Notes: generated from the letters alone by a model not told the origin. Shown: positions 3,651 through 60,001, numbered from the whole stretch's first letter. The stretch is DNA of 63,636 nucleotides, filler included, from Rhabdomonas costata (GCA_019059605.1; 17 parts of 17 records of this genome joined end to end with filler, not necessarily neighbours in it), one strand, 5' to 3'. Numbers and translations: made by a program.

Positions 3651-3750
3651 NNNNNNNNNNNNNNNNNNNNNNNNNNNNNNNNNNNNNNNNNNNNTTAATT
3701 AATTAANNNNNNNNNNNNNNNNNNNNNNNNNNNNNNNNNNNNNNNNNNNN
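3651..3750. other. Artificial contig spacer (N-run, TTAATTAATTAA, N-run); 16 in total, also near 7450, 11200, 14950, 18700, 22455, 26205, 29950, 33695, 37440, 41185, 44990, 48730, 52470, 56210, 59950
   Basis: Identical six-frame-stop 12-mer embedded in Ns at about 3.75 kb periodicity. Confidence 0.99.
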
Positions 3751-7400: not shown

Positions 7401-7589
7401 NNNNNNNNNNNNNNNNNNNNNNNNNNNNNNNNNNNNNNNNNNNNTTAATTAATTAANNNNNNNNNNNNNNNNNNNNNNNNNNNNNNNNNNNNNNNNNNNN
7501 GGTTGGTGGTAGGGGAGGGAAGGAGGGCGGGGGAGGCGCTGAGTAGTTGATTAAAGCTCGATTTGCAAAGGTGCCCTCATTGTAAAGAA

Positions 7590-11251: not shown

Positions 11252-14200
11252 AGAATCTCCTCCGCTCGGTGACTTCGCCGCGCGAACACGGGCTTCGTCT
11301 TCGTGAGCAAGCACCAATGCAACTTTCCCCCGACGCTCTTTGCACGGCATCTGACTGCTAACTTTGGGGTTCGGATTGGTGTTGCACTGCCCGTTTTAGA
11401 GCAAAAAATCGACCTGGTTTGGCATCTTGAAGCTGACGGGCAGGCTGAAGTTAATGAAGGAGAGTGCTCCCTTCTCCACCTTAACGCAAGGACCTGCGAA
11501 GTTTACTTCGAGTGCGGACATGAATGCCAGCAGCCAGATGTTGGTCATTCGGATAGCAGTTCCTCGCCTGCTGTTACCTCTCCTCGCGCGACTTCTGTGA
11601 GTCGCATTGCACTTCTTGAAAATGTTCCGATTACCTTGGATCTCGAGAAAATTACGTCAGAGAATCATCACCTCCTTTCATGTGCAATTCCTAAAGTTTC
11701 CATGCAGCTCTCGACTTTGACTTCGGCGGTATTGGCGGGAACCTTCAAAGATATGCAACAGGAGTTTGAATCTGCTATGAGCTCCTCTCCTTCTGGTGAA
11801 TTTGCGTCGTCTGTCGTTGAGCGTTCTACATTGCTGAGCGCACCTACCCTCAACCTCATGGTTCAGGTGAAAGGTTTTGGGTTGACCTTCACTAGTGATG
11901 CCGGAGACAAGAAGTATCCATTGTTCGTTTTTCACGGCACGGGAACTCTTCAGCACACGAAAGCTGATGGCCAGTTTCACGCTCACTTGGAGTCTTTCTG
12001 GTGCGACTATTACAGCCCCTGCATTCACAGTTGGGAGCCTTTCCTTGAAAAAGCGAGCGCACACCTTGAAATTCAGAGCAAATCTCTCCCTACCGAGCTG
12101 CACACCGAATGTAAGCTGCGAGCCTCCCTTTTGAACTTCAACGTGACACCCGCCCTAGCGGGTGCCCTGCTCGAGGCATATTGTTTGTGGCATGAGATGC
12201 GGGTGGTCCCCAGTACCGCGTTGCTGCGCGCTGAGGAATTCTTTCTCTTTCATCTGGTCAATCACGCAGGCGCTCCTCTGCTCTTTCGGTGCGAACCTAT
12301 GGGGAGGGTAACAGTGGCACCCTCCAGCACGGCGCGGTTCCGCGTTCAAGGGAGAATAGACACCATTTCGTCGAATCCGCAGCTCTTGAAGGTCCAGCTG
12401 GTTGATGGGGTCAAGGACGGTGACGGGACTCCGATCAGGGTTGATTCTGTGGGAGAGTCTATTTACTCAATACAGGGTATTCCACTCTTGGTCCGTGTTA
12501 ATTTTGGAAAGGGCTTCAAACGGATTGAAGTCACTTCGCTCGTCACGATTATGAATCACACTCCCGTTGGCCTGCTAATTGTCGATGTTGGAAAGGTTGA
12601 CGCCGATGGAGGCTCGCTGGCAATTCCCTCTGATTTTCTGGACGTAAAACCAATGGCTGTTCGTCCATTAGTCGGAGAACAAAAGTTCACTGTCGCTCAG
12701 CTTGGCCTTCGATTTGGAGATCTGCACAAAATGGGCAATGCAAGCTTTACGATGCGGTGCTCTGCAGTTTCTCCCGACACTGGATTGTTTATTTGCTTTG
12801 TCGATCTTGCCGTGAACGAGCTCCTCAATTATGTGACTGTTTCGTTCTCTCCGACCTTTTGCATTCGAAACCTCTGTGGGAGAGCGGTTGAGCTTGAGCT
12901 GTTCGAGTCCAAACGGGGCAAAGCGGGATTCTTCCGAGCAAATCAGACACTGACCGCGGTCGCAAAAGGAAGTGTGGAGCATGAGCACACCTTCAAGGTA
13001 ACGTGCGCAGAAGTTGGATGTGAGCTGTGGCTTGAGTTCAGCGTACAGCAACCAACCATGGAGAAGATCAGCATGAGGTTTGCTGAATCAGAGAGCCAAC
13101 AGGTGCTGGTGAGACCTGTCGGCAATGATAAAGAATATTTTCCAACGGATGCGTTGCTATGCGACTCCAGAAAACGCGAGCTTCGTGTGAACATTGAGCG
13201 CAGCGGCATCAGGGAAATCACGTTGTCGGTTCCTTTCTGGATCATCAACGACACGACATTTTTTGTGAGCTATTCGGACAAGCTGACCAATCGCCGGACC
13301 CTGACTGCCGGGCAGGTGCTGGGGCAGAAGGTCGATAAACCAGATGGAACTCGTGATGGAGGCGATTGCCCAAGCCGGCAGCAGAGTCAATCGGGCATAG
13401 TTCCTAAGTGTCTCACACCTTTTCTTGTGAGCACTGGTACCCAGTTTGGATTTTCGTTGGACTTGGAGCAGTCAGCCCACTTCATGGTTGGTGACGGGGT
13501 GAGTTGGTCGAATTCTGTCAGTATTTCTAGACTAAGCACTCACTCGTTTGTGGAATGTGGCCTGAAAGATGGGACGGGGTACCGTTGCGCTGGCGTCTCT
13601 GTGGAGCTGCCACCGGGCAATGCGAAGCTTTACACAAAGGTGTTACGGCTGACCCCGAGATGGTTATTTCTCAACCGAACTTCGGAGCTTTTGGGTGTTC
13701 GACTCATTTCTCGAGGCTGTGCCGACTTAGTTGTTGAAGTAGCTCCATCCGAGCCCCTTCCTTGTCATTGTGGGAGGGCTTTGGGAAACAGTATTTCTTT
13801 GATTTGTTCAAGGCGGCACCGAGGACGATGGTCGAAGCCTATCATGGTTGACTCGGAAACAGATGTGACTGTTAATCTTTCTTATGTGGGAGATCCAGCT
13901 TCCCTGGCAGCAAAGAAGGAGTCAGTCGGTTTTGCTAATGAGCAACCATCAGAACCATTTGCCCTGGTCATTGTCCGAGTTCGCGTTAGTATGAGAGCCG
14001 GTGTCGCGTTTTTGACACTCGATAGCGTCTCTAAGCCGCCTTACTCTATTCAGAACAGGCTCGGCTTCGAAGTTCAAGTGCAACAACAAGGGATGCCCTT
14101 TGCTTATCCCATCAATCCACGATCAACTGTGGGTTATGCGTGGGATGATCCCGAAGGAGACCTTACTCTTCTAATTCACGTTGAAACCGAAACTTTCCCT

Positions 14201-14316
14201 GCCGTCCTGGACCCAAAACTTCTCAGCCACCCAGATGAAGGGCCATCGACGACTTCGAGTCATAGCTCTTTTCTTCAGAGTGCCACCATCAAAGTTGGCG
14301 GGTCGGTACCATGTGG
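11252..14316 (+). CDS. VPS13: VPS13-family bridge-like lipid transfer protein, large internal exon covering the VAB/SHR-binding repeats
   Basis: More than 1000 uninterrupted codons with WEPFLE, PFWIINDT, TKVLRLTPRWLFLNRT, PPYSIQNR and YAWDDP motifs. Probable donor GTAAGT near 14316. Confidence 0.88.
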
Positions 14317-15796
14317 TAAGTGGGGGTCCGGGACGGGCAAGGGTACAATGTGGGTAGGTTTTTGGTTTTTGCGGAAATCCAACAAGAGTTGCGCAAAACC
14401 GCGAAGCATTGGCAGCTGCAAACGATCAAACAAAAGACAACAAGGATAGGGCACAGAAGCGCAAAACGTGGAAGGACGATGTACACAAACAAAACTCGAC
14501 AAGAAAACACGTGGCGAGGAAAGAGACTTTTACAGGTGGAGCGCCCGATTGAAGACTCGGCGCAACAGCATCGAAAGAAAAGGAGAAAGCCCTTGGGAGG
14601 GATTTGACTGGCGGTGCTGCACAGCAAAGTGGACAGTTCCTTGGGGACAAATGCGGTCGCTTATGAATGGAACTGGCGCTGGAGTGGATGTTTTGCTCTG
14701 ATGACTGATTATATTGACCAGAAGATGGGCATACCGCACCGTGATCGCCATCTTTAACTTTCAGCAGGGAAAAGAGCGAATCTCCGGCACCACTGTTAAA
14801 GCGGTTGACATGCCACTGCCTCCTTCCAAAAAGAGTTCCCAACATTCCGGCACCGTGTGTGTGCAGAGCAGGTCTGGCCACGACATGGCGAAAAAAACCC
14901 NNNNNNNNNNNNNNNNNNNNNNNNNNNNNNNNNNNNNNNNNNNNTTAATTAATTAANNNNNNNNNNNNNNNNNNNNNNNNNNNNNNNNNNNNNNNNNNNN
15001 TGTGTTGGTGTGTACATAGAAAAAAGCAAACGAGATTGCAACGGAGAGCGTTGCAACATGGGGAAAACGGGCTTCTTGCTCTTCTGTGGCAATAAAAAGC
15101 TGAGAACGGCTTGCAAGCACCAAAGCAAGTACAGAGGAGAAAGTGTTCCGAAAGAAATCTGAGGTCTGGGTTCGCTCAGACTAGCTTCCCATTATCTCAA
15201 TAGGATGTCGTTTTTAGCAGCGGATACAGGAGGGCCCTGTGGACACGCACAGAGAGAGAAATATGGGAGGGCATTAAGGAACCAACGCGGTGCGGAAGCC
15301 CCGAAACCATACAATACACGTACCCTGATTTCGCATCAAACCGGCTGGCCGGTCCATTTCAGTGACCGAAACTCCGCAGGGAAAGGTATATGGCTGCATG
15401 TGTCCAGCAAGGCCAACGTGAGAAGCAGTTTAGCAGATAGAATTCATATAAACCATAAACCATCTTCTTGCGGATAGGTGACCCGCAACACTTCATCAAA
15501 AGACGTCACTTACTTTCAACTATGCCGGTAGCTGCAGACCTTGATGCCACAGACCACCAATATGCCATGGATCCTCGGGACACTGAGGCAGTACCGCGGC
15601 CAATGCAATGCAAAGACTCAAAACAAAAAGATTCGATCCGCGCAATCCCGGAAGTGACTATAATAAAAACTCTCAAAAGGGCAAAGCCGAAGCAAGCCCG
15701 GGGTCTTTTGCACGTACAGTGGCCTCGTTCCTTGCCGCCTGTTGCCCACCGAAATAAAAGGGTTCATGCTGCGTTGCTCCGCGTCCTTGCCACCAC

Positions 15797-19900: not shown

Positions 19901-22900
19901 TGTTTAGCTTGCGAATGAAGGGGTTTACCGAAATTGTGAAGTTACCGAAAAGATGGTTTGTTTGGTGTTGCTCAGTGAGTTGAAGAGGGGCTTGTTTGGA
20001 ACTGTTCTGATGATAACTTCGTGGTTTTTGGAGAGAGGGAAAGAAGAGTGGTGAACTAGTGTCTGGGTCTTTGGGGGGTGTTCGTTATATGTTATGCCGC
20101 TTCGCACTTCGAGTATTGTTCGCTGTGTCTTTTTTTTTTTCGGAAACTTATGTTTTCGTATGGTTCGCTTTGGCCTTCAGGGCGGGTTCGCGTGTGTGCT
20201 GTGTTGGAGTTTTTGTTTGAAAGTCCATGGCGAAAACGTACATTGTCACGTTTCATGAGAACCCATTTCCAGCTTGCTAGCATATTTCCTTCCGTTAAAC
20301 GCGACGACTTCACCAGAGTTACGTGTTTGTTTGGTTATCCGAAACCTGTGATTGGATGTTTCTTCTCTAAATCCTGTGTGTGTCCTGAAGCCGTGGCCAT
20401 CTCGGTTGGCCCTCTCCATTTGCTTCCTTGTTATGGACGGTTGTTTTCCGGGTGGTCAAACAGGGACCAAACGAACGAACGAACGAACGCTGCGTTCGAG
20501 CATCATGTCATCAGTCTGCCAGTCTGCCGGCGCTCCGCGTAGTCCCTTCCGGCATTTATGCCAATGACCGCTTTTGAATGAGGCTTTGGATGGTATGAAA
20601 AAAATTGCCGTGTCGTGGCGCTTAACTTGCCGTTATCGATGGGCCCAAATGGATGACCAAATTGTCTTCCCCAAAAATCCAAAAGGTGCTAAACCAGAAG
20701 CGTCCACCAACGCCCTTCCTTGGGCACCGCATGATGGAGGCAGGTGGCCCCCGCCGTCGTGTAGGATCCTTCCGGGGCCCGCATTTACGGTAGATGCCCG
20801 GAACACGGTTCTGTCATTCTAGATCTTCAGCGGGCCATTTTGGTAATTAGGGGTTCGGATTCAGATGTGAGTGTGGTAAGTTGTGGTTTTGAAAATGTTT
20901 TGTAAATGTGTTAATGTCTGGTGTTGTTCGATTTTTATTTTATATATCTTCATAGTTTGTGTGTTCTTTCTTCCTGCCCCCAACCCCCCCTCATCAGCTA
21001 ATGCGTTGCGTTGTTCGCACCCCAAGGCCACCATTTTCTCAACCGACCTTGGATTGCCCTTGTTTGCAACCAACATCTGGCTTTGTTTGCGAACACCACC
21101 ACGATGATGCAAGGAAAAGCCNNNNNNNNNNNNNNNNNNNNNNNNNNNNNNNNNNNNNNNNNNNNNNNNNNNNNNNNNNNNNNNNNNNNNNNNNNNNNNN
21201 NNNNNNNNNTTTCTTCCTGCCCCCAACCCCCCCTAATCAGCTAATGCGTTGCGTAGTTCGCACCCCAAGGCCACCATTTTCTCAACCGACCTTGGATTGC
21301 CCTTGTTTGCAACCAACATCTGGCTTTGTTTGCGAACACCACCACGATGATGCAAGGAAAAGCCTTACCGTGACAGCCGGGACGCGACAACGTCATCTTT
21401 CTTCTTACACAGGAAGGGCGGCATCGACGCAGGAGATGACACGACGACCAAGAGCGTGTTCGATAAAAGGTGGGGGAGAGTAACCGTATGTGTTGGGGCG
21501 CAGCGAACCATCACATTCAGGTAATGTCACGACGACCTCATCTTCCACTTTACCGGTCGGCCCTTCTTCGTCGGACCTCCCCTCTTATAGCCACCCTTTA
21601 ACTCAGGGAGCCATCACCCAGCGGGACTCTCTCTCTCTCACTCTAACTCTCTCACTCTCTCTCAATTCACCCTAATCATTGCCTTCTGAGTGATGAAGTG
21701 ATGCTATACCTTGCCGCTGATGCGGTCATTTTGGTGGTACTGCGCGGGTACTGACACACGGGTTATGGTTGACACTGTACCACGACCACCAACGTTACCA
21801 TTACCAACATCAAGGTCTAGCACTGAATTCGTACACCACTACTAATAGGGTAACACACCCTACGTTGATGACATACAGGCATGCGTCCTACCTCGAAGCC
21901 AAGGGATATGGTGGTGCATTTGTGTTATGTGTAAGGTCCGTACGTGGAGGGTGTCCACAAGCTGTTCGGTAAGTCCTCGCAGCAAGGAACCACCACACCC
22001 ACAACACCAGCAACAGAGACAGCAACATGCACCAACACAGCACTAGCATCAACCATCACACTCCGACACACGAAACCATCCACCCCAACCGCAACAAACA
22101 CACCCTGAGAGCCAAGAACGCAGGAACAATTAACGTGCACTACAGAAGCACTAACAACGGAAGCATCGACACCACTACCCACCAACTGCAACACACCATC
22201 CAACCCAAGCACATCAACAGAGTCATTAACAAACGTAGCATCGACACAACACGCAACAAGCAATACAACAACGAGAGCACGAACAACAGAAGCAAGAACA
22301 CAGGACACAGAAGCGTCATGGTTAACGGACACAGAACCTGAGAGCATGGTAGACCGACACAGTGAGCATGGTTGAGACCAACACCAACAGGGACACCAAC
22401 ACCCNNNNNNNNNNNNNNNNNNNNNNNNNNNNNNNNNNNNNNNNNNNNTTAATTAATTAANNNNNNNNNNNNNNNNNNNNNNNNNNNNNNNNNNNNNNNN
22501 NNNNGTGTTGGGTGTGGTTGGGTTTTGGGTTGCTAGGACAGAAATCAAGGGTGGCGGGTGTATTCCCGTCTGTGACTCGCTGCCCTACCGCGTCCTGTCT
22601 GCCTCATCAGTTGCTTCCGAGTGTTGGCGTCGGTGGCGGCTTCCAGAAATACTCTGATGTCCTGGGGTGAACCGGCGACACCAACGCCGAGCCTTGAGTG
22701 AGTGAGGAATCCTTTATTTCGGCTCTGTATTAATGTCTGTACTCCCCTTTCCCAGTCTTGTTTCCAGTATGATGAACCCGCTTCTATCACATTTAACACT
22801 GTCGCTCCCCAAGCCTTGTTTGATAGTACGTTTGCATGGCCACGTTGTTGAATTTCCTGTCAGGTAGCTTCTGCGTTACTGCAACACCCTTGAACACTGA

Positions 22901-30150: not shown

Positions 30151-30367
30151 AGTGCATTTATGCCCCCCCCCCCTCGCCACGTACCCCCCAAAAAGCTTCT
30201 ATTTTAATCCCGGGAACCGTGCATCGCCACCTAACCCCCTGCAAATCCATATATTAGAATCCCAGGGAACACGTGCATCACCTCCTAACCCCACCACCTG
30301 CAAACTCAGAAAGGGGAAAACAAAACTTCACAGCTCACCCTACCGGGGGGGGGGGCATAAATGCACT
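30151..30367. mobile_element. MITE-like element with ~21 bp terminal inverted repeats
   Basis: Left end agtgcatttatgccccccccc, right end gggggggggcataaatgcact. Internal direct repeat ggaac(a)cgtgcatc.cc.cctaacccc occurs twice. No clear target-site duplication. Confidence 0.55.
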
Positions 30368-33744: not shown

Positions 33745-34993
33745 TCGGCGTTGTCGGCCGTGGGGGTGGTAACAGCGACGGTGGCGGCGGTGGCGGCGGC
33801 GAGGTGAGCGCCTGCACTGCGTCGGCGGTGCTTAAGGGGACGAACCACTCGCTGCAGTCGTACAGCGGCACCCCTAGCGTCCTTCGGCTTCCCTTTTGCC
33901 GCCTCTGAAATCAAATGGACAGGCAGCAGAACACAAGGAAAGAGTGCAAAAAGGATGATGTACGCAGCATTCTCCCTGGAGGAGGACGGTGTGTGTGTGT
34001 GTGTGTGTGCATTTTTTGCAGGAAAAAGGTCACAGGCGATTGAACCTGGCACAGTTTACACAACCTCTGCTTCAAAAATGACCTGTCCGAGGGGAAACTT
34101 GTAAAGACACAAAAAAGCCACCCAACCCCTGTCTTGAGCATCAAGACTCACCTCTGCCGAAGCGGTGGTGGCGGCCGCTGTGAGGATGTTTTCCGCAGCA
34201 GTGAAGTGCACCTGAAGATGCCACCACGCATCAGCATCGAGGGTGAGGTGCGGTGGGGACTGACCTGAATTTCCACAATAGCTTGGAAGTCATTGGGAAG
34301 AACAAGAACAAGAACTTAGTGAACAATTGAACAATTTAACGTTGCTAACCCATGTCCTCATTAACCCATACCCCCCCTCCCAGACAAACTCCCGGTCTCA
34401 GCCTCCCACTCCGTGCCCCTAAACCAAACCTTTCCCACTCGTCCAAATTAGAAAAATACTTAGGAAAGGCAGGAAAGGCCGTGCCCGAGTTTTGTGCCAA
34501 CGGTAAACCCTTTATCACATATAGTGGTTTTGGGGGGTTAGCTACAACGTGGTTACCCCCACCCCTCCCTTACTTGGCACCATCAGATTCCCGTAGGTTC
34601 CTTCCTTCCGCCCGGTGGGGTACCCGACCCCACCCAAAAAACCTGGTGGGGTTGTGAACGCTTGGCAACATCCGCTTCAGCCCATGGACTGCATGGAATC
34701 AACCGTGGCCAGCGCCCTTTACGTTTCTACGTTTCGCCTAGACACAGGCGATAATACCACAAATACAACTCCTGGGAGGGTCTTTGGCAAAAGACAAGCC
34801 AAAAAGAGCCAGGGTTTGGGCAGGGCGACGACAAAGGGCCCTTTGGCAATACCTCCGTGGGGGTCGTCATCCGCAGCTTCACCTTCAGCCCAGCAGGGAG
34901 GCCGCGCGCAGCTTCAGTCACCCTCTCGGTCTTCCATTGGAATGCCAGCTCCTCCAGGGAATCGGCGAGGGCCTCTTCTTCTCCGTTCATGGC
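33745..34993 (-). CDS. Unknown protein, copy A of an inverted paralog pair; exons 34993-34853, 34211-34152, 33904-33745 (3'-partial); possible upstream exon ending at 35280
   Basis: AMNGEEEALADSLEELAFQWKTERVTEAARGLPAGLKVKLRMTTPTE / VHFTAAENILTAAATTASAE / RRQKGSRRTLGVPLYDCSEWFVPLSTADAVQAL followed by a Pro-rich tract. All junctions are phase-0 GT-AG and conserved in copy B. Confidence 0.8.
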
Positions 34994-35243
34994 CTGCGAA
35001 GGGACCCCATCACACAAGTGGCCTCAGGCAACGGTGGCTGCGTTGCAAACGCACTGTTTTGACGAGCTTGCCCGCGCACTGCGTTCCGCGGTGGATGTGA
35101 AATGGCGTATGGTATTTGCGAGTGGCAGTGACTGCTGCGGTATCGGCGGTGCTTGCAGTGTCAAGTGAACTACTAGCGAATGACCAATGAGGATCAGATT
35201 TTTCTGACGTACTGCACTAGCTATTCACCTGAATGCTTCCAAA

Positions 35244-35348
35244 CACCCATTCAATTATCCGGACGAAGCTGCAGCCAACCTGGGCCTGCAGCTGGCACAG
35301 CTGCAGGCCCAGGTTGGCTGCTGCTTCGTCCGGATAGTTGAATGGGTG
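35244..35348. repeat. Near-perfect palindrome: 51-bp arms, 3-nt loop (GCA 35295-35297), 2 mismatches
   Basis: 35244-35294 is the reverse complement of 35298-35348 except at two positions. An outer pair ttcacctgaatg (35224) / cattcaggtgaa (35360) extends it. Confidence 0.97.
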
Positions 35349-35615
35349 AACGACAAGTTCATTCAGGTGAACGACAAGTACCAATCCGTTATAGAAATCT
35401 GGTCGTTGGTTGTTTGCTTGTGACGTGTCCTGTTTAAGGTGGTATAGCGTCTGACAGAAGAACGATGGAAAAAAAACTTTGGCACCCGCTCGCACGCATG
35501 GCAAGCTCAACCCTGCAAGCTCAACCCTGCAGACTGTTTGTCCCTGGATAGCTATGGCAGACTACAAAAGGATACTCATCATGGTTGGGACATCCCCATG
35601 ACTACATTGCCGCAG

Positions 35616-37390
35616 GCCGTGAACGGAGAAGAAGAGGCCCTCGCCGACTCCTTGGAGGAGCTGGCCTTCCAGTGGAAGGCCGAGAGAGTAACGGAGGCCG
35701 CGCGATGCCTTCCTGCTGGGCTGAAAGTGAAGCTCCGGATGACGACCCCCACTGAGGTATTGCCGAAGGGCCCATTGTTCTCGCCAAACTCCTTGCTCAC
35801 TGGCATGGCTTTACCAAGGCCCTTACAGAAATCTCTTTTTGGGGGGTTTCGCTATGTTCCTGGACCGTGTAGTTGGCCACCACCATCAGCCAGCTCTTTG
35901 CCCGCTTTAGCCGGGATTGGGATGGGGTTAATCCACGGAACCATAGGAACTTTGGGGTGCCTCGGGGAGTTACTTTATTATTGCACAGCGTGGTCTAATT
36001 TATATAAATTCCTCCCTCCTTCTTTTAGAAGCGGTCGCCGCGTGGGTTGCAGAAAACGTCGCCCCCAGGGTCCAGAGAACCTCGGTTTTCCACTCTAACA
36101 GTGCAAAGCTTGGGGGTTAAACGATAGCATTGAACGTTGAGCATTTTGGAAGGCGAGATACGAAACTGAGCCATTGCTCTGGCTTTGCGTTTCCTGGGTA
36201 TTCTTGAGCTGCTTTGGATGGTTGGAACAAAGGTTCTCTTTTTCTTTTCGGGCCTCTGACGGGAACATTGCCTAGGGGCAGCTTTTATGAGATTTCATAG
36301 CGGTGGACATCGAAGACCCCCCCCCCGTCTTAAATTGACAACCCGTTATAACGCAATCTCCCCTCCCCAAGAACTGCACTGAACCCCGTGATAGTCGGGC
36401 GTCCTTCTGGGGTGAGAGTTTGAAGTGCTCTGGGTTTAAATTTGCATTTCTATTTTGGTGTCAAATCAATGCACCCTGTCACTTCGTTCTTTTGGGCATT
36501 TTTCGATCTCTAGGTGAGGCCGACACCGTGCCATCATAAGCCTCATACGCCCCCGCGTTGTTCCTCGAGAATTCGCTTCCAAAACCTAAGTGATCCACAC
36601 ATACGCACGCGCCCCCCAACACCACCACCTCACACACAACCATGCAACCACCTTCCAACCTTTTGTCTCTAAGAGAAGCCATTCCACCTTCCCCAACTTC
36701 AATGTTAATGCAGGAGCGGGGCGTTGTATTTCAGGTTCGCTTCACTGCTGCGGAGGAGGTACTCGCGGCGGCTGCCACCTGTGCTGTCGAGGTGTTTTCC
36801 CCGGATTTGAATAGGGCTCCTTGTCTGGCCTTTCTGTGCATTTTGCTGAATGTGGGGCTGAGGTCGGCTGTTGTGAAGCAAAGCTGAGAAACGTGCCCAC
36901 GTGATTATGTGCAATATCTTACTGGATTGTGCTAGGCTCTGCACTTCTTGCTGGGCGCGCAGGTACATATTTGCCTTGAATATCTCTTTCTTACTCCCAC
37001 GGATTGTGCCGATGACTTCCACTCCACCTCAAACCCAAACGGGTTCCTTCACCCAACAGCACAGGTTTTTAGTCAGCGGCTTCCTGGCTCTGTGGATCTC
37101 TTTATTTGTTTGGAGACACCTCTCTGCCTCTGCTCCGCTGCGAGCTGCCGTCCTCCCTGCCTGCAGAGGGGTCCCCCAGGGTGTACAAGGGTGACACTGG
37201 GAGTGCCGCTGTACGACTGCAGCGAGTGGTTCGCCCCTCTTACCGCGGCCGACGCAGTGCAGGCGCTCTCCCCCCCACCGCCGCCACCTTCGCCACCATC
37301 GTTACTGCCACAGCCGACAACGCCGACGACACCCACCACGATGCCCTCCTCGCTGCCCGCCGCACCTGTGGTTGGGGCGCGGAGTGCCTC
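35616..37390 (+). CDS. Unknown protein, copy B of an inverted paralog pair; exons 35616-35756, 36735-36791, 37167-37390 (3'-partial); possible upstream exons 35028-35106 and 35221-35312
   Basis: AVNGEEEALADSLEELAFQWKAERVTEAARCLPAGLKVKLRMTTPTE / VRFTAAEEVLAAAATCAVE / RGPPGCTRVTLGVPLYDCSEWFAPLTAADAVQAL followed by a Pro-rich tract. Same intron positions as copy A. Confidence 0.8.
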
Positions 37391-41235: not shown

Positions 41236-44030
41236 AACTTTGGGCCCAGATTGACCGGATTGTTGTCGTGGTTATCCCCATTGGCTTTACTATTGAGTTT
41301 GTTGAGGACCTGCTGCTGTGGACCACACCACTGTATTCATGGGCGGCGATATTGGGCTGGTGGCTTCTATGCTGGACTATTCAACCCTGGATGGTGCCCG
41401 TGAGCATCCCGTTGGGGTGCCTTGCCGCTATTCTTGCGAAGAAGAAATTAGGCCATCTGCAAGATGATCTTGTTTTTTCCTCTGAACGCATGGGCGCCGT
41501 CGCGTCCTCTGATTTGGACAAGGCTAGCACCGATTGTTTCAGTCCCACTTCCTCTCCTTCTTCCTCACCTGGTCCGACGTCTGGCCTTACTCCCAGCACT
41601 CAGAAAAAGCCTGCGCGGAAAACCACCGAGTCTCCTCTGCGTCGATCATCTTCACTCTCCATGGGACAAGCCAACGGTGAACGTTACGTCCGCTTTAGCG
41701 AACGAACTATCCCCCGTCCTGTCCGGTTGCGTGCGATGCAGAACGCCCAGAATCTGCTGAGCCTGGCCGCAGACGTGGCGGACTTTTTGTGCTGGGTCTG
41801 GGAAGTTCCTCTCAACGATGACCATACCTTGACGTATGCGGCAATCGCGTTTGCGGGTGTCCTCATTGTCTTCTCCTGGGCAGTGTATTTCCTCCCCATC
41901 AGGCTTCTCTTCAGCATCAGCCTCACGGTGGTGTTGATTGCGGGAAATTCCTCGGTGCGAGCGCTCTTCTTTCTGATGGCGTTTATGGTACAGCATGCCC
42001 GCCGGATGAGGTCACGTCAGGTTACCGCCGAGGCTCGAACTCCAGAGACCTCCGAGCCCTCCGAGGAGGACCTGCTCCGCCCCCGAGGCTCGATGAAAAG
42101 CGGTGTGTTTGTGGAGTCAGTGTACGAGATTCAGAAGTGGTGGATTGGTCGAGGGTGGTGTCATCACCAGTGGTACCCGTACAGCATGGCAGATTTTGTG
42201 GATCCGCCTGCGGGATGGCGGTGGAAAGGCCTGTGGTACGTCGAGGACAGTCGGTCCGCCAATCCCGAGGGGTGGTATTACGCGCAGGGCTTCGTGGTGG
42301 AGAACTTTCACCTGCATTGCGGGGTTGGGGACTTTGTTCGGCGACGGACGTGGATTCGCTCCCGAGTGAAGGTCAGCGGGGAGGCTCAGCCTGCGGGCAC
42401 AAGTAGCGGAAACCCCCCCTCCTTAGACAGCGGGGACGTTGGGAAGGCAGAGACGGTGGCCCCTGAAGGCTCCCAGAATGGGTCGGTTGCCTTCCCTTTG
42501 GAGTCAGCATCGGCCGATCCCCCTCCAGAAGACAGCGTTGTGGTCTGTGACCTGGTTGGGTTTTATGAGTATCAACGGTGGTGGCTAGGCCGAGGGTGGT
42601 GCCAAAATGGCTGGCAACTGTTTTGCCACCAGGCATCTCCAGACCCGCCCTCGGGGTGGCGATACAATGGTTTGCGCTGCACGGACGACGACGACAAGGA
42701 TGAGGGGTGGCGGTATTCCCGAGTCCTGAGCAGCGAGTACCACAAAGGGGCCAGGCATGGTGACTTTGTGCGCCGACGCACATGGTATCGCACTCGGATC
42801 CGTTTAATCGGCACCGCGGACCCGGAATACACCCCGCAGGATACCGAAGCTGACACGAAGGACCCCGCTGAGAAATATCCGAACGGAACGATTGTCAACA
42901 GCGATGGGTCTGTTACGGAGATTCTTGTTGGGGTACATGAGTGCCAGCGATGGTGGCCCGTATACGGATGGTTTGCAGACGGATTGAAGCCCTTTAATGA
43001 AGGGAGATCATCATATGCGCCGGAAGGATGGCGGTGGAAAGGGCTGAAGTGTTTACAAGATACGGGCGATAGCAATGACGAGGGATGGATGTATTCCCGT
43101 TCCTATGCGGCAAAGTTTCACAAGGGCTGTGGAGCAGTGAACGTCGTTCGTCGTCGTACATGGTGCCGCACCCGAGTTCCGGTTAAAAAGGAGTCACCGG
43201 AGAATGAGCCGAAGCCAGCAGAAAAGCCAGCGCGGCAAGGAGTGGAGGTGTCTTTGCAGACGTCTCCAATCAAGGTGCCGACATCTCCTCTGAAGACGCC
43301 GGAGGGCTCTCCTGGAGAGCCTCGCGTGGAGCCCGCTTATCCCGAGCAATCTTCCACTTCCCAGTCGCCCCTGCCTGAGGACACCACGTCGAAAGAGCAA
43401 ATGGTTCAGCCCTCACCCGCGAAACCCGGATCGCGTCGAAGGATGTGGCCCTTCGGCCGACGGGAAGCTTCCCACGTCACGATTCCCGCTACAACATCGT
43501 CTGTTGCCATGTGCGCTGAGTCCATTGGATCCGAGTCTAACCAACTTCCTGCGAGCCCATCCTTGCCAAGCATGATGGTTGCGGCCGAGAATGTGGCAGT
43601 GGGCAAGGAGTCGAGTCTCCAGACCCGAGTTTCCTCTCCCAAAGTGTCGATGTCTGCGGATGATGCTCCAGAAGTGAGCCGACCGCTCAGTTTTTCCTCC
43701 GATGAGTCCAGGGAAGCGGGCGTTGCAGAGCCTGAGCCGAGTCAGGTTTTTGAGATACAGCGGTGGCGATTCGGGCGAGGATGGAGTCGGCACGGGTGGG
43801 TTCCCCGGTCCTGCGCGGAGGTGACGCAGGCTGGTCCTCCTGAAGGGGAGGAGTGGGATGGGGAATGGTTCGTCTGTGTTGCAGACTCCTCGGACAAAGA
43901 TGGGTGGATGTATGGGTCCAGCGCTGCGGGCCCCTTCCATGAGGGCTGCACAAAGCCCGATCGGTGGAGGCGCCGTGCGTGGAACCGAAAGCGGCGAGCG
44001 GTTGCCTCCGCTTCAGTGTCAGTCAAGTAA
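41236..44030 (+). CDS. Pex24/Pex30-like membrane protein with four dysferlin (DysF) domains; 5'-partial terminal exon
   Basis: ORF of 920+ codons. N-terminal hydrophobic hairpins (LLLWTTPLYSW..., MQNAQN..., LPIRLLF). Four repeats of (Y/H/F)E.Q(R/K)W...GW..P.GW.W...D..D.EGW.Y......VRRR.W.R.R at ~42120-42368, 42561-42800, 42933-43178 and 43746-43997. Confidence 0.85.
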
Positions 44031-49065: not shown

Positions 49066-52000
49066 GGCGTCTCCATTGAGCTCCAGGGCTCGCTCATCGC
49101 CAGCGTGCAGTCCTCCCTGCAGACCTGGGTGGATCGCGGGGAGACGGCCGTGGACCTCATGGTCAACAACATCCAGGCCAGCGAAGCTCCAGGAGGAAAT
49201 GGCGCGGACGTTTCGCAGGCCGCCGCCACTCTTCGGCAGCTGGAACAGGCTGTGTTCACCACAGTGAAGACGTGCCCCTGGATGTTTGGAATGAATATCT
49301 CAATCTACTCGGACGTTTTCGGCGGGTGCGTGCCACTGCTCTTCTCTGGCTCTCACTTTTGATGTGATGCGAAAATGCAGTGTGAACAATTTCTCTTGGT
49401 TTCATGCATTCCAGGACTGGGGTGATGCAGGAGGTGGTCTTTGGGTGGTACAACTACAACTTCATGACCCAGCAAGTAACGCCGACGCTGTACAGCACCC
49501 CAGTCTTCGCGAATTCCTTCCTCAACGCCACCACGGCGCTGCTCTGTGAGGTGAACTCCACCACGGGGCAGCCTTTGCTCTGCTTTGACCAGACCAACCT
49601 CGCCATGCTGACCTACCGCTCCCCCCTTCCTGGGGGCCTTCCAGAGCAGCCCACCTGCCAGTGGATGAACCGCATTGCCTTTTCTCTTCTGATTGGGCTT
49701 CCCGACACGTACCTGGAGTGCCGGGTTCCCTTTCATGACCGCCGAGGGGTTTTTGTCGTGGGGATGGGGGCCAGCGTGTACACCATCAGCAGCATGCTGC
49801 TTTCCCTGGTGCCGAAGCACGGCGACAGGCTGTTTGCGATTTTCCGCACCAATGCGGGGACCATGATTGGGGCCTCCCATGGGAAGTTCTTCTCCCACTC
49901 CGATATCGACTACAGCCAGAACGACCCCTTCGCAAATCCCGTACCGATCAGCGACTTCCAGCTCTACAGCGCAGTGAACTCCACGGACCCCACCATCCAA
50001 GCGGCGGCGTACTGGCTGCTGCAACAGTATCAAAGCTGGTCCAGCATCCCTGAGCTCAACGCGACGGTGAGCCTGGTGACGGGTACCTTCTGGATCTGCT
50101 CGGTGCACATACCTGCAAAGGTGTTTCGTTAGGATCGCATTTTATTCGGGGGCTCCGTATGTTTTTGTATTGCTTTGGTCCCCGCGCTTTGTCACTAAAT
50201 TGTATGGGGGGCGTCATCGGAAATCGGGGTTAGGACCACTTATTTCGGCCGAAAACCTCACCCTATTCGCTGGGTGACATCCGCCATGGTCACTCCCGGA
50301 CCGGATCCGACCGGAGACCTAACATTGACCTCAGAACTCGAGCTGGAGTGACGTATGGTGGTGCTCCTGAGATGAGTTAGTTGGCCGCTTCCCGGCCTCA
50401 GACTCCTTCTCTACGCCGAGGTATGACCCCTTCAAGGTCCCTTTTTTTTGCCCAAGGGCATTGTCGACATTTTAGAAAGTTTTCAAGGGCCCGGGGTGGC
50501 ACTTTTCGGACCTTTGCAGGCCTGCATATTGAGATAAGCTTTCGGCCGGGCCTGCTTAGCATCCCTAAGGGTAGAGCCCAGGAGTACTTCATGCTGGCAC
50601 CGGAGCGGCCGGAATGCACATGTTTAGAGCCACCCTAAGGTCATTTTTGCCCCCCCCCCCTTTTTTTGCCTTTACACAGGCTTGCAAGGTCCGTTTTTTT
50701 TCTCGCTTGCTCTACCTCGGGCTTGGGTTTTGATAAGAGAACGAACTGTAGGCTGGCACACCGTCCGCCCACCTGCACGCCGGTCTGCCAGCACTGATTA
50801 TGTTTTTATCATTTTTTTTGCTTCTTTTTTAGTTTATACTGTACATTAAATTAAAGCATTTCTTACTGAATAGCAAAAAGGGAGTCGTTTTTTACCCAGC
50901 CCGCTTATTGCATTGACGTTTCCCATGTTTGTACCTTTGGTATTATGAAAACTATATAATCTAATATCCCACATGTGTATGTATACGTTTATACGTACAT
51001 ATGTCTGTACACACGTATGTATACGATGTATGTACCTACGTAAGTTTGTGTGTGTACCTGTGTGTTCGTTTGCAGGTAATTTAATGCATTCCGCCTTATA
51101 TGGGTTGCACCCGACGTTTTTTATTTTCAGTTTTTAATTCGCCACTGTTGAAAGACCAAACTGAACCTCTGCTAAATTGAAAAACCGCCGTAAAGTGAAT
51201 GTATTCATCGTTCGCGAAAAATGTAACTATCTTTTGCTCAACTGACAACCAACCCGGAAAGGTTTTGGTTCCAGAAGGTTGTGAGCCGACTGACTTTTAA
51301 GGGATGTCGACAAGCGTCAACGTTATTTGGGAACTTGCCAGAACGCTCGCTCCCTCTTCGTAGACGCCTCCCAGTGTGTGGAGGATCTTGCCTTCACCGC
51401 ATTGCCGGCCTTTCACGCGCTTCTCGTTTGTAAAAGAAAAACTTACCAAGCAATAAAAGCATCTTGTGAACGGGATGAAAGGCGTACCGTTCACCATGTT
51501 ACGTGGTGGGAATTGTGGGATAAACATTTTCTCAAATACACTATACCTGCCTTTGTGTCGTTGCTGCCACGTTTTTGCCTGTATTGCAATGAACCGCACA
51601 CCCCTGTGCCGCCTGACGCAGTACGGGCTGATGTGGCAAGTCTTCCTGCTGATCGATGTGGACACCCGCCTGGGCCCTGTGGTGGCCCAGAACGAACGGG
51701 CCGCACAGGACGTACGCCGTACCAACGCCATCCTGGTGGGAATCCTTGTGGCCGTGGTGGTGGTGGCCGGGGGGATCGCTGCGGGGGTTGCACTGCTGCT
51801 GTCGTGGCCTTTGGAGCGGCTGGCGAAGGGGATGGGTCTGTTGGCGGTGCTGAACCTGGAGGACCAGGAGCTTGCTCTTGCATCTCGACCTTCGGTGATC
51901 TCCGAAGTTGTGGGGTGCCAGAAGTCGTTCAGCGCGATGGAGCGGTAGTTTTCGTGTTTTTTTTTGCCCTCCACTCATCATCCTCACTTGAGCTTATCAG

Positions 52001-52286: not shown

Positions 52287-52689
52287 TTTGCCCCCCTCCT
52301 CCCCAGTTTCGACCACCACCGGACCGAGCACCTGTTCTGTTCTGTTCGGCCCCATTTCGTCAACCACCTCCCGGTCACTACCGCGCCGCTCTCATGCAAC
52401 ATTCCCTGCCACCCCACACACNNNNNNNNNNNNNNNNNNNNNNNNNNNNNNNNNNNNNNNNNNNNTTAATTAATTAANNNNNNNNNNNNNNNNNNNNNNN
52501 NNNNNNNNNNNNNNNNNNNNNGGTGTGGTTGAGATGTGGTATGGTATGGAAAATCTTAAAGTAACCACACACCTGCATTGAGTTCCGTTGTTCGTTTTTC
52601 ACCCAGAGGAACGCAATGCAGGTGTGTGGTTACTTTAAGATTTTCCATACCATACCACATCTCATACCATACCACAACTCATCCATTGA

Positions 52690-56290: not shown

Positions 56291-59200
56291 GTGGAGCATG
56301 TTTTGCCCTTCGCGAAGTTTAGCGACGTGCACGGGGTGCAGTCCGCGGTGAACTCCCCCAATGTGCAGCGGCTGCTGGTCCTCCATCTTCCCTCCCCTAT
56401 CCAACGCTGCACGCACTCACGCACGCACGCCTGCGGTGCGCGCGCGCACACACACGCACACACAGAAACACACACGCCGAAATCAACGAAGGGTCCCAGT
56501 CACCCAAAGAAGGGCAAAGCCTCAGAGAGCTGAACAGCAATGGGACAGCGCAGGTAGTTGGGCCAGTGCGCGGAAGGGGTCCCTGTGCAGAACAGTGGGT
56601 CGCGAGGAGTTAGGGGGTGGCCAACCCTGCACAGCTAGCGAGAGCGGGGCATGGCGCAGCCAACGGGTCCACGAGGAAAGAGGAACACGAGTATTTTTCA
56701 AGAGAAAAGGTCACGCATGCGTTTTACACGAATGTTTTTGTTTGTGCATGTGGTGGATGTGCAGGCTAGCCACTCCAGGGCGTTGTACAAGCTGTACGGG
56801 CAGTTTGTCGGCAAGGGCTACCCACCGTCAATTGGGCTGCAGGAGTTCCAGTTCATGGCCAAGGAGCTGGACCTTCTGGACAGGTTTTTTTTCGCAACTC
56901 CTGGGCAACGAAGCCATTAATCCCTGTGCCCCCGCCCCTCCCCAAGTTCACCGGTGTGAAACTACTGGAACTCTGTAGCCCATCAAGGCCTTTTGCTCCC
57001 AAATGGGAAGCCTTTCGGCTGCGTATTTCCGGAATCCGGACTGCGCTTCGCTTGCTTGTATCCCGAAGGCACCGCATTTCCGAGCTTGTCAACAATCGGG
57101 AAATAGGGAATAGGTTCCGTGCAAATTGGTCCTTTTCTCGCCAACCCATTTTCATTCATGCCATAGTCCTCGAGAGCTGGTGATCCAGTAATTCTTCAGC
57201 GAGCGGAGGGTGGGGCGGCGGTGGGCACGTACGTGAACAGTTTAGTTTGGTCTGGAACCACGGTGTGTTCTCTGGATTTCAGAAAATTGTGCGAGAAAAG
57301 GATGTGCTGGGATCAACCCAATTTGGTTGTTGAAAGTGGTTAGGACGCGATGTACGGGTCCCCTGGGATTCTAATCGAGGCTTTTGCAGTGGGTTAGCTG
57401 GCGATGTATGGGTTCCCTGGGATTGCAATAGAAGATTTGCAGGGGTTTAGGAGACAATGTACGGGTCTCCTGGGACTCTTTCCAGGATGGTACTTTCACC
57501 GGTACTTTCACAGGTGCAGCGGAGCGGCCAAAATTCGTAGGGGCTTTCATTGGTTGCACGCATGTGCGGGTTCCAGCAGGATGGGGGGGGGGTCACAAAT
57601 GCACTCATGCCAAAAAAGAAAAGTAAACCTCCCGCTCCTCCTTCCCCCCTCCCCTGCGTCTCTGCAGCGGTGTGGGCTGAGCCGTCGGTGTGGGGTGACG
57701 GGAAAGAGTTGCCTTTGACCGAGGAGGTGCAGCAGCTGCAGCAAGAGAACGACGAAACCAGACATCGCCTGGCGCGGCTGCGCGCGGTGTTTCAGTCCCT
57801 GTACACTCAAGTCAAGGAACTGGAGAAAGGCAAGCTGGTGCTGGAAGAAGTCTCCTCGCTTTCTCCAGGTGCATGGCAGCGCAGGTGAGGGCGAGAGCCG
57901 TGGAGGCCAGCCTTTTTTTCTGAGCGATGTGCATAGCCCCTGTGGGTAAGAAAAGGATGTCGTCGCTGCTTCACCTTTGTGCACCCCAGCCCACGCGCAC
58001 GGTACTGTGAGGGGTTGTGGGTGCTGTCTTTCAGTCGCCACGACATCCATGGAACCCTGGTGGTCGAAGCCATCTCCTGCGGCCCCCGAGCCGGACAAGG
58101 CGAAGGGCCGTGGGCTACGGTTCCTCCCGGATGGCGGGACCTACTGTGGGGACTGGTGCGGAGACGACATGCAGGGCAACGGGGTCCTCACCTTTGCCCG
58201 GGGACAGGGGGTGTATCGGGGCAGCTTCGTGTCCGGCGCCCGCGAAGGCTTTGGGGTGATGGAGGAGGCTGATGGTGCGTGGCTGTGTGTGGCTCGTCGT
58301 GGGTGATCATGCTCAGCGCTTTTTCCATGCTCAGTGGGGTGGGGGCATCTATCGTGTCGTGTCATGCGTTATCGCCAACATCTGTCTCACAAGGCCTCTC
58401 ACCGTGTTATACGTTTACCAGTGTCACATATCAGATGCCTATTTGCTTTCGTGTGGTGGTCCGCCCCGGGGAGCACCCAGCGAGTGGGGAATTGATGCGG
58501 TGAGATGTAGGATAGGAGAGTGGGGAACAGAAGCGAAATGTTAGTGCTCAATGGCTGCCTTTGGAGATACAATGGGTTTTAGGGCCGGAATGCTTCGGTT
58601 TAGAGCTGGGTTAGAGTGTTTTTTCGGGTCATTTTGGTCTGTTTTTCGGCCTTTTTGGCCCTCCCGCGTGAAAGGGCCTTTTTGGCCCTTTGCAGGCCTG
58701 CAGGCTGAGCCTAAGCGTTCGGCAGGGGCTACATAGCCTTCCTAACCGTAGACCTCAGGAGTACTTCTTGCTGGCATCATAATGGGCGTCGGCTGGCCTT
58801 CCTGCTTGCCCCAAAAAAAGAAATACTTGCTAGTGCTGTGCAGACAAGGGTTGCTATCATTGCAATTTTCTCGTGCCCACTGTCGGTGGACTTATTTGTG
58901 TGTTTGTCGGCGGATTCAGGCTCAAAGTACACTGGGGACTACGTCGACGACCAGCGGCACGGCCAGGGCTTGCTGGAGTCCTCCAACGGGGATGTCTACG
59001 AGGGGGATTTCGTCCGTGGGGAATATCATGGGGTGGGCAAGTGCCGGTTTGCCTCGGGAGAGGTCTACGAAGGAGAGTGGGCGCATGGGCAGCCCTGCGG
59101 GGTGGGCACGATGACCCACCCCGATGGCTCCGAGTACCACGGAGAGTTCCGGGTGTGCTTCTGTGAATGAAGAACCTTTGCTGTCATGATCGGTGCTGTT

Positions 59201-59791
59201 GGCGTTGCGTGCGTGTGAGCGCGTGTTCGCGTCGAGACGGTTACCAGTGGGAACAATCATGCACTGCTGGAGCGATCAATTACTGGTGGAGCACACGAGA
59301 ATGACACGTCTTTGGTGCCCCCCCCCCTCCCCCGCAGGCCACGTTCCCGCCTCATTATTGGTGGCTGGCCTTCCAAATTGGTGGCTTCCCGTTAAACCAA
59401 ATCTAGACACAAGATGAACACCCAGGATGCACCCGCACGTTTTGCCAGACCTTCCTTATGCATGTGAAGCCTCTTGTGAATAGCGTTAGCACTGCTTACT
59501 CACTTTTCAGTCCGTTTTCTATAACGGTGGCATTCAGGAGAACCTGTGCCCCACACAAGCTTTGTGGCTTCGAGTTAGCGTCATTTGACAACGAGGTCTC
59601 GCTGGGCATGTGTTTCCGTTACCTTTGAGGAGTTCTGGGTCCGGTTGGAGGCAAGTGTGGGTTAATTCTCGCAGGACGGGCAGAAGAACGGCCGCGGGCG
59701 CTTCACGACAGCAGCCTCGGTGTACGAAGGGGAGTGGAAGGACGACGAGATGCATGGTAGAGGCCGGCAGACCTTCGAGGATGGAAGCTGG
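56291..59791 (+). CDS. MORN-repeat protein with N-terminal EF-hand-like and coiled-coil regions, partial; exons 56291-~56377, 56765-56883, 57514-57536, 57668-57868, 58035-58275, 58920-59152, 59675-~59791
   Basis: At least 7 Y.G.(W/F/Y).....G.G MORN units. A phase-consistent GT-AG chain including a 23-nt mini-exon links the upstream exons. Confidence 0.88.
57335..57480 (+). repeat. Intronic minisatellite, ~54 bp unit, about 2.7 copies
   Basis: atgta(c/t)gggt..cctggga at ~57350, 57404 and 57457, with similar intervening sequence (aat.ga.g.tttgcag.gg.ttag). Confidence 0.8.
58580..58780 (+). repeat. Interspersed repeat copy, homologous to 50495-50640
   Basis: Same blocks as the 50495 copy. The ggccggaatgc block lies upstream here and downstream there, which suggests a tandem unit. 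Confidence 0.75.
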
Positions 59792-60001
59792 TGTGCGATT
59801 ATGATGAAGAGAGCTAAGGGCCATGGGAGGCAGGATGGTGCGCCCGCGGCCGTTCTTCTGCCCGTCCTGCGAGAATTAACCCAAACTTGCCCCCAACCAC
59901 ANNNNNNNNNNNNNNNNNNNNNNNNNNNNNNNNNNNNNNNNNNNNTTAATTAATTAANNNNNNNNNNNNNNNNNNNNNNNNNNNNNNNNNNNNNNNNNNN
60001 N

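Follow-up and report, generated by a model that had tools for sequence, protein, structure and literature searches.

Head-to-head paralogs with a bidirectional promoter are exemplified by the collagen IV gene pairs and by the hsp-16 pairs of Caenorhabditis elegans, and mirror symmetry is also found in the palindromes of sex chromosomes, whose whole arms are nearly identical around a unique spacer. Table 2 of PMC3194840 puts the head-to-head share of linked duplication events at 21.1% in human, 15.8% in mouse, 13.2% in zebrafish and 20.9% in C. elegans; promoters common to head-to-head genes are well described according to PMC12957363, and a "bidirectional hsp-16.2/41 promoter" is named as such for C. 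elegans. Conversion between the arms is proposed in PMC6790999 to maintain the sex-chromosome palindromes, and PMC7999016 reports that inverted repeats of 5-9 bp with spacers of 3-12 bp can seed large palindromic duplications via snap-back. Here we describe a locus of Rhabdomonas costata (GCA_019059605.1), at positions 33745-37390 of the 63,636-nt stretch of DNA that was analysed (the window), in which two diverged copies of an intron-bearing gene read outward from a mirror axis at position 35296. In our assessment the locus is probably a genuine ancient palindromic gene duplication, in which both paralogs have been kept and the ~105-148 bp around the axis form a shared symmetric 5' element under selection.

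Inverted geometry and gene structures

The window joins 17 contigs of 3635-3707 nt each, roughly ordered by size, and the locus corresponds to exactly one whole contig (3646 nt; guanine-cytosine (GC) content 0.545). An inverted duplication around 35296 had been put forward in the original prediction, which was made from the sequence alone and named self-comparison as a means of checking it. The axis turned out to be exact, with 38/40 mirrored positions complementary compared to 18/40 at the next best centre, and self-comparison recovered collinear inverted matches for the centre and for three exon pairs. When the window was compared with itself by blastn, 34824-34998 matched 35611-35785 (88% over 175 nt, expectation value (E) 1e-53), the centre (35224-35371) matched its own reverse complement (86.8% over 152 aligned columns, E 2e-40) and 33775-33881 matched 37193-37293 (85% over 108 nt, E 1e-22). 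With more sensitive blastn settings the left arm, once reverse-complemented, matched the right one without a break from the axis to 34748/35852 (67% over 579 columns), and then again in the exon 2 region (34289-34167 / 36652-36779, 66.7% over 129 nt) and the exon 3 region (33881-33745 / 37193-37326, 80%); the longest exact inverted word common to both arms is 31 nt.

Each arm carries one of two homologous genes; these lie on opposite strands, 5' ends towards each other, and three collinear exon pairs read outward from 35296. The features of the contig are as follows, with slashes marking splice junctions:

33746..33904, minus strand: left exon 3 (partial), RRQKGSRRTLGVPLYDCSEWFVPLSTADAVQALTSPPPPPPPSLLPPPRPTTP; open frame that runs off the contig end within a Pro-rich stretch
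33905..34151, minus strand: left intron 2, 247 nt, GT-AG, phase 0; junctions GCAGAG/GTGAGT and TTTCAG/AGG
34152..34211, minus strand: left exon 2, 20 codons, VHFTAAENILTAAATTASAE
34212..34852, minus strand: left intron 1, 641 nt, GT-AG, phase 0
34853..34990, minus strand: left exon 1 from the ATG, 46 codons, MNGEEEALADSLEELAFQWKTERVTEAARGLPAGLKVKLRMTTPTE
34991..35223, no strand: left half of the spacer, diverged to chance level except for CGCAGGCC immediately 5' of the ATG
35224..35371, no strand: central quasi-palindrome, axis at 35296
35372..35597, no strand: right half of the spacer, diverged
35598..35756, plus strand: right exon 1 from the first in-frame ATG, 53 codons, MTTLPQAVNGEEEALADSLEELAFQWKAERVTEAARCLPAGLKVKLRMTTPTE
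35757..36734, plus strand: right intron 1, 978 nt, GT-AG, phase 0; junctions ACTGAG/GTATTG and ATTTCAG/GTT
36735..36791, plus strand: right exon 2, 19 codons, VRFTAAEEVLAAAATCAVE
36792..37166, plus strand: right intron 2, 375 nt, GT-AG, phase 0; junctions GTCGAG/GTGTTT and CCTGCAG/AGG
37167..37388, plus strand: right exon 3 (partial), RGPPGCTRVTLGVPLYDCSEWFAPLTAADAVQALSPPPPPPSPPSLLPQPTTPTTPTTMPSSLPAAPVVGARSA; open up to the contig end

The start codons, ATG at 34990 on the left and ATG at 35598 on the right, are 607 nt apart, within the intergenic distance of <1 kb by which head-to-head pairs are conventionally defined. All four introns that are certain are of the GT-AG type, in phase 0, and interrupt the protein at the same positions (TPTE/V and E/R); as already described in the original prediction, the three exon pairs thus have identical intron positions, with boundaries that sequence reading and junction contexts show to have been given correctly, and intron lengths that differ between left and right (641 vs 978 nt for intron 1, 247 vs 375 nt for intron 2). 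The exon 1 start placed there at 34993/35616 also holds, merely including one extra codon (GCC). The exon 1 copies are 88% identical in DNA and 93% in protein, the part of the right exon that is homologous to the left one beginning at 35619, where GTG replaces the left ATG; the left exon 3, preceded by TTTCAG/AGG, encodes protein that is 78% identical to that of its right counterpart. Neither copy contains a stop or a frameshift, and the splice sites of both are intact. The contig is an old inverted duplication carrying diverged paralogs.

Constraint on the proteins and an orphan family

Synonymous and non-synonymous differences between the two genes were counted by the Nei-Gojobori method over 118 aligned codons, and converted to synonymous (dS) and non-synonymous (dN) distances and their ratio dN/dS (omega):

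Exon 1, 46 codons: 14.0 synonymous, 3.0 non-synonymous; dS 0.59, dN 0.029, omega 0.05
Exon 2, 19 codons: 7 synonymous, 8 non-synonymous; omega 0.32
Exon 3, 53 codons: 26.5 synonymous, 16.5 non-synonymous; omega 0.145
All exons, 118 codons: 47.5 synonymous, 27.5 non-synonymous; dS 0.82, dN 0.115, omega 0.14

Fisher's exact test of synonymous versus non-synonymous change gave p = 3.9e-14. Differences at codon positions 1/2/3 number 4/0/13 in exon 1, 4/3/8 in exon 2 and 12/7/24 in exon 3, so that 45 of all 75, and 13 of the 17 in exon 1 alone, fall at the third position, the GC content of which (GC3) is 0.75 in the left and 0.70 in the right copy, compared to 0.545 for the contig. The Pro-rich end of exon 3 is of low complexity and its alignment uncertain; it is exon 1 alone that carries the conclusion. 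The 14 synonymous and 3 non-synonymous differences that the original prediction had counted in this exon were reproduced over its 46 codons, and protein-level selection on both arms, which it had deduced from them, is borne out by the full codon alignment that it had suggested: omega is 0.14 overall and 0.05 in exon 1, far from the value of ~1 that it had named as speaking against such selection. Judged from these ratios, both copies are protein-constrained for most of their history, since neutral drift of one of them would be expected to give a pairwise omega of ~0.5 or higher.

Pairwise alignment of corresponding arm segments, with scores compared to those of 200 shuffles, gave the following z values:

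Exon 1: 21.7
Exon 3: 15.4
Inner centre, 52 nt per side: 14.6
Exon 2: 9.7
Intron 1, first 30 nt: 8.8
Intron 1, last 78/83 nt: 5.1
Outer centre: 4.5
Spacer adjoining the centre, 64/69 nt: 3.2
Intron 2: 3.2 (weak similarity)
Intron 1, positions 31-130: 2.9
Bulk of intron 1, 433/765 nt: -0.3
Remaining spacer, 161/170 nt: -1.2

Most spacer and intron sequence is therefore no more alike than shuffled sequence, which makes the duplication old; this randomisation of unconstrained sequence agrees with a dS of ~0.8. Whatever still matches between the arms is, on this comparison, either constrained or homogenised.

Protein searches used single exons as queries. No Pfam family was found at E ≤ 1 with exons 1 and 3 of both copies, left exon 2 or the relative P0001 introduced below; a match to DUF7415 was dismissed (E 0.078, 13.6 bits against a cut-off of 27, from a minus-strand frame through the palindrome), as were the only hits of profile searches against the PDB (E 0.64-7.2, to coiled-coil peptides and a capsid protein). 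A word-indexed search of the longer-protein class only yielded no homologue among 48 candidates for exon 1 and 437 for exon 3. An exhaustive HMMER search with an exon 1 profile returned six matches at E ≤ 1e-3 among 1,835,955,588 representative proteins. One of these, P0001, is a true relative: a 79-residue protein (E 1.2e-14; ENA, on two contigs of ≤644 nt) that shares 64% of 49-50 residues with the right copy and 59% with the left. P0004 and P0006 were rejected as relatives, being tandem-repeat proteins, and P0002, P0003 and P0005 match just 13-16 profile positions in 4-8 stretches. In the ESM Atlas exon 1 found no usable match, and the best exon 3 match (0.82, to bacterial hypothetical proteins) lies within the range of shuffled proteins. 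The JGI metagenome collection, prokaryotic genome contigs and viral contigs yielded no related locus; the central 36-mer has no exact match in the viral contigs, and the other 16 contigs of the window hold no further copy, a tblastn search of the window giving the two arms and Pro-rich low-complexity noise. The protein had not been recognised in the original prediction either, and with no Pfam or PDB match and one 79-residue relative among 1.84 billion representatives, the family is, as far as these databases reach, an orphan one.

The frame of P0001 closes three codons past the shared TE/V junction, which supports that splice site; an exon 1 extending into the 25/30 conserved bases behind the donor was rejected for this reason and because the frames of the two copies part within a few codons. 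These bases belong to the first 30 nt of intron 1 (34823-34852 and 35757-35786; GTATTGCC.AAGGGCCC.TTGT…), of which 25 are identical between the paralogs, a level that the remainder of the intron does not approach, and may represent a splicing signal or an intron-retention isoform. The product itself is acidic at its N-terminus, where no signal peptide is obvious; a small structured region and a linker of the SPPPP/TTP type come next, and the rest lies beyond the contig. Exon 1 is predicted to form a single helix over residues 8-36 (mean predicted local distance difference test score (pLDDT) 74.8). For exon 3 (mean pLDDT 61.8) the prediction is a pair of short strands with one short helix, and its Pro-rich tail is disordered.

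The palindromic centre and its competing explanations

The innermost arms of the centre, 35244-35295 and 35297-35348, are complementary at 49/52 positions (94%), far above the identity of synonymous sites in the coding region (proportion of synonymous differences (pS) 0.41-0.58). The three mismatches lie 1, 26 and 41 nt from the axis, the first of them within the 3-nt spacer of the palindrome core, CTGCAGCTG-GCA-CAGCTGCAG, which is a 9-bp inverted repeat. At both outer edges, beyond a short indel-rich stretch, stands a mirrored 12-mer, CATTCAGGTGAA (CATTCAG/GTGAA), and when 35215-35380 is folded as single-stranded DNA, a single hairpin of -78.4 kcal/mol results (mean of 200 shuffles -22.5, z -18). 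That one symmetric element stands between the copies, as had been proposed, is evident from the contrast between the 49/52 complementarity (z 14.6) and the flanking 161/170-nt spacer (z -1.2); this complementarity points to a shared 5' element that is selected or homogenised. The outer edges of the palindrome contain candidate splice donors (ATTCAG/GTGAAC and ATTCAG/GTGAAT), and conservation restarts 5 nt before exon 1 at acceptor-like candidate sites (TTGCCGCAG/GCC and CCCTTCGCAG/GCC), so that an additional intron 0 may extend from 35228 down to 34994 in the left gene and over 35367-35615 in the right one. An upstream open reading frame in the outer palindrome (ATGGGTG...) was rejected, its products (MGERQVHS vs MGVWKHS) being unconserved and its frame different from that of exon 1.

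The most likely history begins, in the nuclear genome of a eukaryote, with an ancestral intron-bearing gene of which a mirror-image copy was made that took in the upstream region as well. We infer that the copying probably occurred by snap-back at a short inverted repeat, represented by the present core, since a 9-bp repeat with a 3-bp spacer falls within the range reported to seed such events. Two paralogs reading outward from 35296 resulted, and both have been retained, and presumably expressed, as protein-coding genes of the orphan family, their product combining an acidic N-terminal helix, a short and perhaps mixed helix/strand region and a Pro/Ser/Thr-rich linker. As spacer and introns decayed, the innermost ~105 bp would have remained palindromic, kept by selection on an axis element. 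The likeliest role of this element is that of a bidirectional promoter core, and either side may also hold a short non-coding leader exon, with the candidate junctions CAG/GTGAA ... CGCAG/GCC. Among the four readings of the centre (promoter core, leader exons, homogenisation or a hairpin-RNA gene), a selected symmetric promoter core is the most likely.

Several observations weigh against this account. The adjacency of the arms across the axis comes solely from the assembly, which behaves oddly at inverted repeats: on two other contigs such repeats reach right to a contig end (52522-52673 and 59643-59701 / 59840-59898). Both ends of the contig itself stop at nearly homologous points of exon 3, suggesting that inverted or repeated sequence causes the assembler to break off. 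The likeness of the centre would be explained equally well by local gene conversion or hairpin-templated repair, with no function. If the candidate intron 0 is spliced out, the upstream ATG of the right copy would be lost. Finally, the structure predictions are single-exon and weak (pLDDT 74.8 and 61.8).

The alternative that survives best, although we regard it as unlikely, is that the centre is alike by mechanism: extrusion of a hairpin or cruciform, or short-tract conversion, would re-homogenise the innermost ~50-75 bp, and the genes would have separate, diverged promoters. Identity indeed peaks at the axis and drops outward, from 49/52 to 40/60 columns and then to chance; the centre folds into the single hairpin described above; and gene conversion is documented in PMC6790999 as maintaining the arms of large palindromes. 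On the other hand, PMC7999016 describes close, highly similar palindromes with short spacers as recombinogenic and a risk to genome stability, one that grows with the length, similarity and proximity of the arms, and that the centre has persisted over a dS of ~0.8 despite this risk, with no deletion, suggests a benefit. Furthermore, the 12-mer CATTCAGGTGAA, lying beyond the indel-rich stretch, is not readily explained by a single continuous conversion tract.

Less probable still is that only one copy works, the right one having lost an ancestral ATG and having recently been silenced or become untranslated. What prompts this idea is the homologous start codon, which is ATG on the left and GTG on the right; however, an in-frame ATG lies 7 codons upstream of the GTG with no intervening stop, and every splice site and frame of the right copy is intact. 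P0001 has Ala at the codon of the left ATG, in a frame that remains open further upstream, and since this relative also lacks an ATG there, the left ATG is probably not ancestral. With P0001 as outgroup, moreover, both internal amino-acid changes in exon 1 (T for A and G for C) fall on the left lineage and none on the right, and neutral drift can hardly have played much part, given a pairwise omega of 0.14. On the evidence of these sequences, the start position is not conserved in the family, and the right GTG is weak evidence for decay.

An assembly mis-join, in which two dispersed paralogs each preceded by a palindromic element were joined by an assembler that crossed from one to the other inside it, would mean that the head-to-head layout does not exist in the genome; we consider this improbable. 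The high fragmentation of the assembly, the inverted repeats at the ends of the two other contigs and the nearly homologous positions at which this contig ends on both sides would fit such an error. Mirror similarity nevertheless continues collinearly beyond the palindrome, with a z value of 3.2 for the adjoining spacer and similar distances between axis and exon 1 (298 vs 315 nt), and each locus would itself need a palindromic centre. The 3-nt spacer at the axis is not palindromic and the mismatches 26 and 41 nt away are arm-specific, so that words spanning the axis must have been read from real molecules.

The two remaining roles for the centre are both very improbable. One is a hairpin-RNA gene, microRNA (miRNA)-like or a long small-RNA hairpin, transcribed across the axis and acting on the neighbouring gene or genes. 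In plants, new miRNA genes classically arise by inverted duplication, the centre has a ~50-bp stem with one mismatch and a 3-nt loop, and every one of the 14 Rfam matches that the contig gives at E ≤ 1 is to a miRNA-precursor model (11 families), at 35246-35346 on both strands. All of them are sub-threshold, though, the best scoring 53.7 bits against a gathering threshold of 100 and the closest, mir-30, 40.3 against 50.2; none of the miRNA families tested (mir-6536, MIR7807, mir-30 and others) reached its gathering threshold, and at these thresholds Rfam has no match in the whole window. Any long hairpin yields such matches, and this one is built from upstream rather than coding sequence.

The other is a "mirror exon", whereby the centre would be the leader exon of each gene, transcribed through the axis and spliced from CAG/GTGAA to CGCAG/GCC. 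Between the putative donors the plus strand has a single open frame, the axis-symmetric one with a GCA codon centred on 35296, whose symmetry leaves it open on the minus strand too. Either side of it would be in phase 0 with exon 1; the two sides differ by a net 3-nt indel, and both strands would give nearly the same peptide. An open symmetric frame arose by chance in 2660/20000 shuffled palindromes, the phase match contributing a further factor of ~1/3. The low probability of this arrangement reflects the lack of an in-frame ATG on either strand and the edge residues and peptides, which are not conserved. Were it true, one stretch of DNA would provide both paralogs with the same 5' leader and possibly the same peptide (...HPFNYPDEAAANLGLQL[A/C]QLQAQVGC[C/S]FVRI[V/I]EWV...), and antisense 5' overlap, or the ~50-bp hairpin of the leader, would couple or throttle expression of the pair.

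A fold-back library chimera, due to amplification or a missed hairpin adapter, is rejected, in agreement with the original prediction that such an event would give identical arms: these are 67-88% alike in conserved blocks only, the bulk of spacer and intron is at chance level, intron lengths differ and no exact word exceeds 31 nt.

As for the rest of the window, its 1496 N consist of 16 spacers of the form N44-TTAATTAATTAA-N44 and one internal gap of 88 N. Apparent "repeat families" with a period of ~3.75 kb were rejected as the N spacers themselves, not biological repeats, and any long-range feature crossing 3651-3750, 7401-7500 or the other spacers is an artefact of concatenation. The sole internal gap (21122-21209) is flanked by a 155-nt direct repeat (20967-21121 / 21210-21364, 98.7%), which looks like a duplication made in scaffolding or gap closure. 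The contig starting at 52522 opens with a ~150-nt hairpin (52522-52673; arms of ~58 nt, GGTGTGGTTGAGATGTGGTATGGTATGGAAAATC..., and a loop of ~35 nt), 86% identical to its own reverse complement over 155 columns, which could be a foldback or miniature inverted-repeat transposable element (MITE)-like element or an assembler artefact at the contig end; the inverted repeat at 59643-59701 / 59840-59898 has 59-nt arms (96.6%) separated by 138 nt, the second ending 3 nt from the contig end. Two pairs of ~100-nt stretches, one direct and one inverted, are common to different contigs at 80-81% (50498-50599 / 58675-58776 and 30192-30290 / 57338-57438) and may be dispersed repeats or conserved exons.

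Eukaryotic Pfam matches occur on other contigs (VPS13_VAB, E 1.4e-18; Pex24p, E 6e-10; MORN, E 6e-20). The first lies in an intron-free open frame of 1058 aa (11273-14449, plus strand) that occupies most of one contig and contains a VPS13 adaptor-binding (VAB) domain. The second belongs to a 930-aa open frame (41238-44030, plus strand); after it come several repeats of a Trp-rich module (…GRGW…GWRWKG…GW.Y…RRRTW.R…) that resembles dysferlin-type motifs; a word-indexed search with this frame returned no homologue at E ≤ 1e-5. No transfer RNA genes were found in the window, nor any match with ≤3 mismatches to the dinoflagellate spliced-leader motif.

Comparison with known systems

Near-perfect palindromes tend to be viewed as unstable. 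Provided that the assembly is right here, the locus would be a clean natural example of a small palindromic duplication that has outlasted the randomisation of its neutral sites. It could then help to test how a bidirectional promoter with mirror symmetry evolves, whether short palindromes are preserved by selection or by conversion that hairpins drive, and in what way the copies made by a mirror duplication divide their labour.

Like other head-to-head "duplogs", the two genes are homologous, contain multiple exons, lie on opposite strands with their 5' ends facing at <1 kb and are under purifying selection; unlike in such pairs, the two sides mirror each other exactly up to a spacer of 3 nt, and ~105 bp at the centre are still a near-perfect palindrome though neutral sequence has been randomised. 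With the large palindromes of sex chromosomes the locus shares gene-bearing inverted arms around a centre of symmetry, but its arms are 67-88% alike in conserved blocks, at chance level elsewhere and near-perfect at 35244-35348 only, and it measures 3.6 kb compared to tens of kb to Mb. The core, with its 9-bp repeat and 3-bp spacer, resembles those of snap-back duplications in yeast, within the 5-9/3-12 bp range of PMC7999016; that work concerns somatic or experimental events in repair mutants, whereas the event envisaged here would be an ancient one in the germline. A long near-perfect hairpin with 14 sub-threshold matches recalls the miRNA genes that arise from inverted duplications, from which the locus differs in that no gathering score is reached and the hairpin derives from upstream sequence. 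In summary, the back-to-back layout of paralogs is common and the preserved near-perfect centre is the unusual part of this locus, which is set apart by its exact symmetry, its great age, that centre and the orphan gene that it carries.

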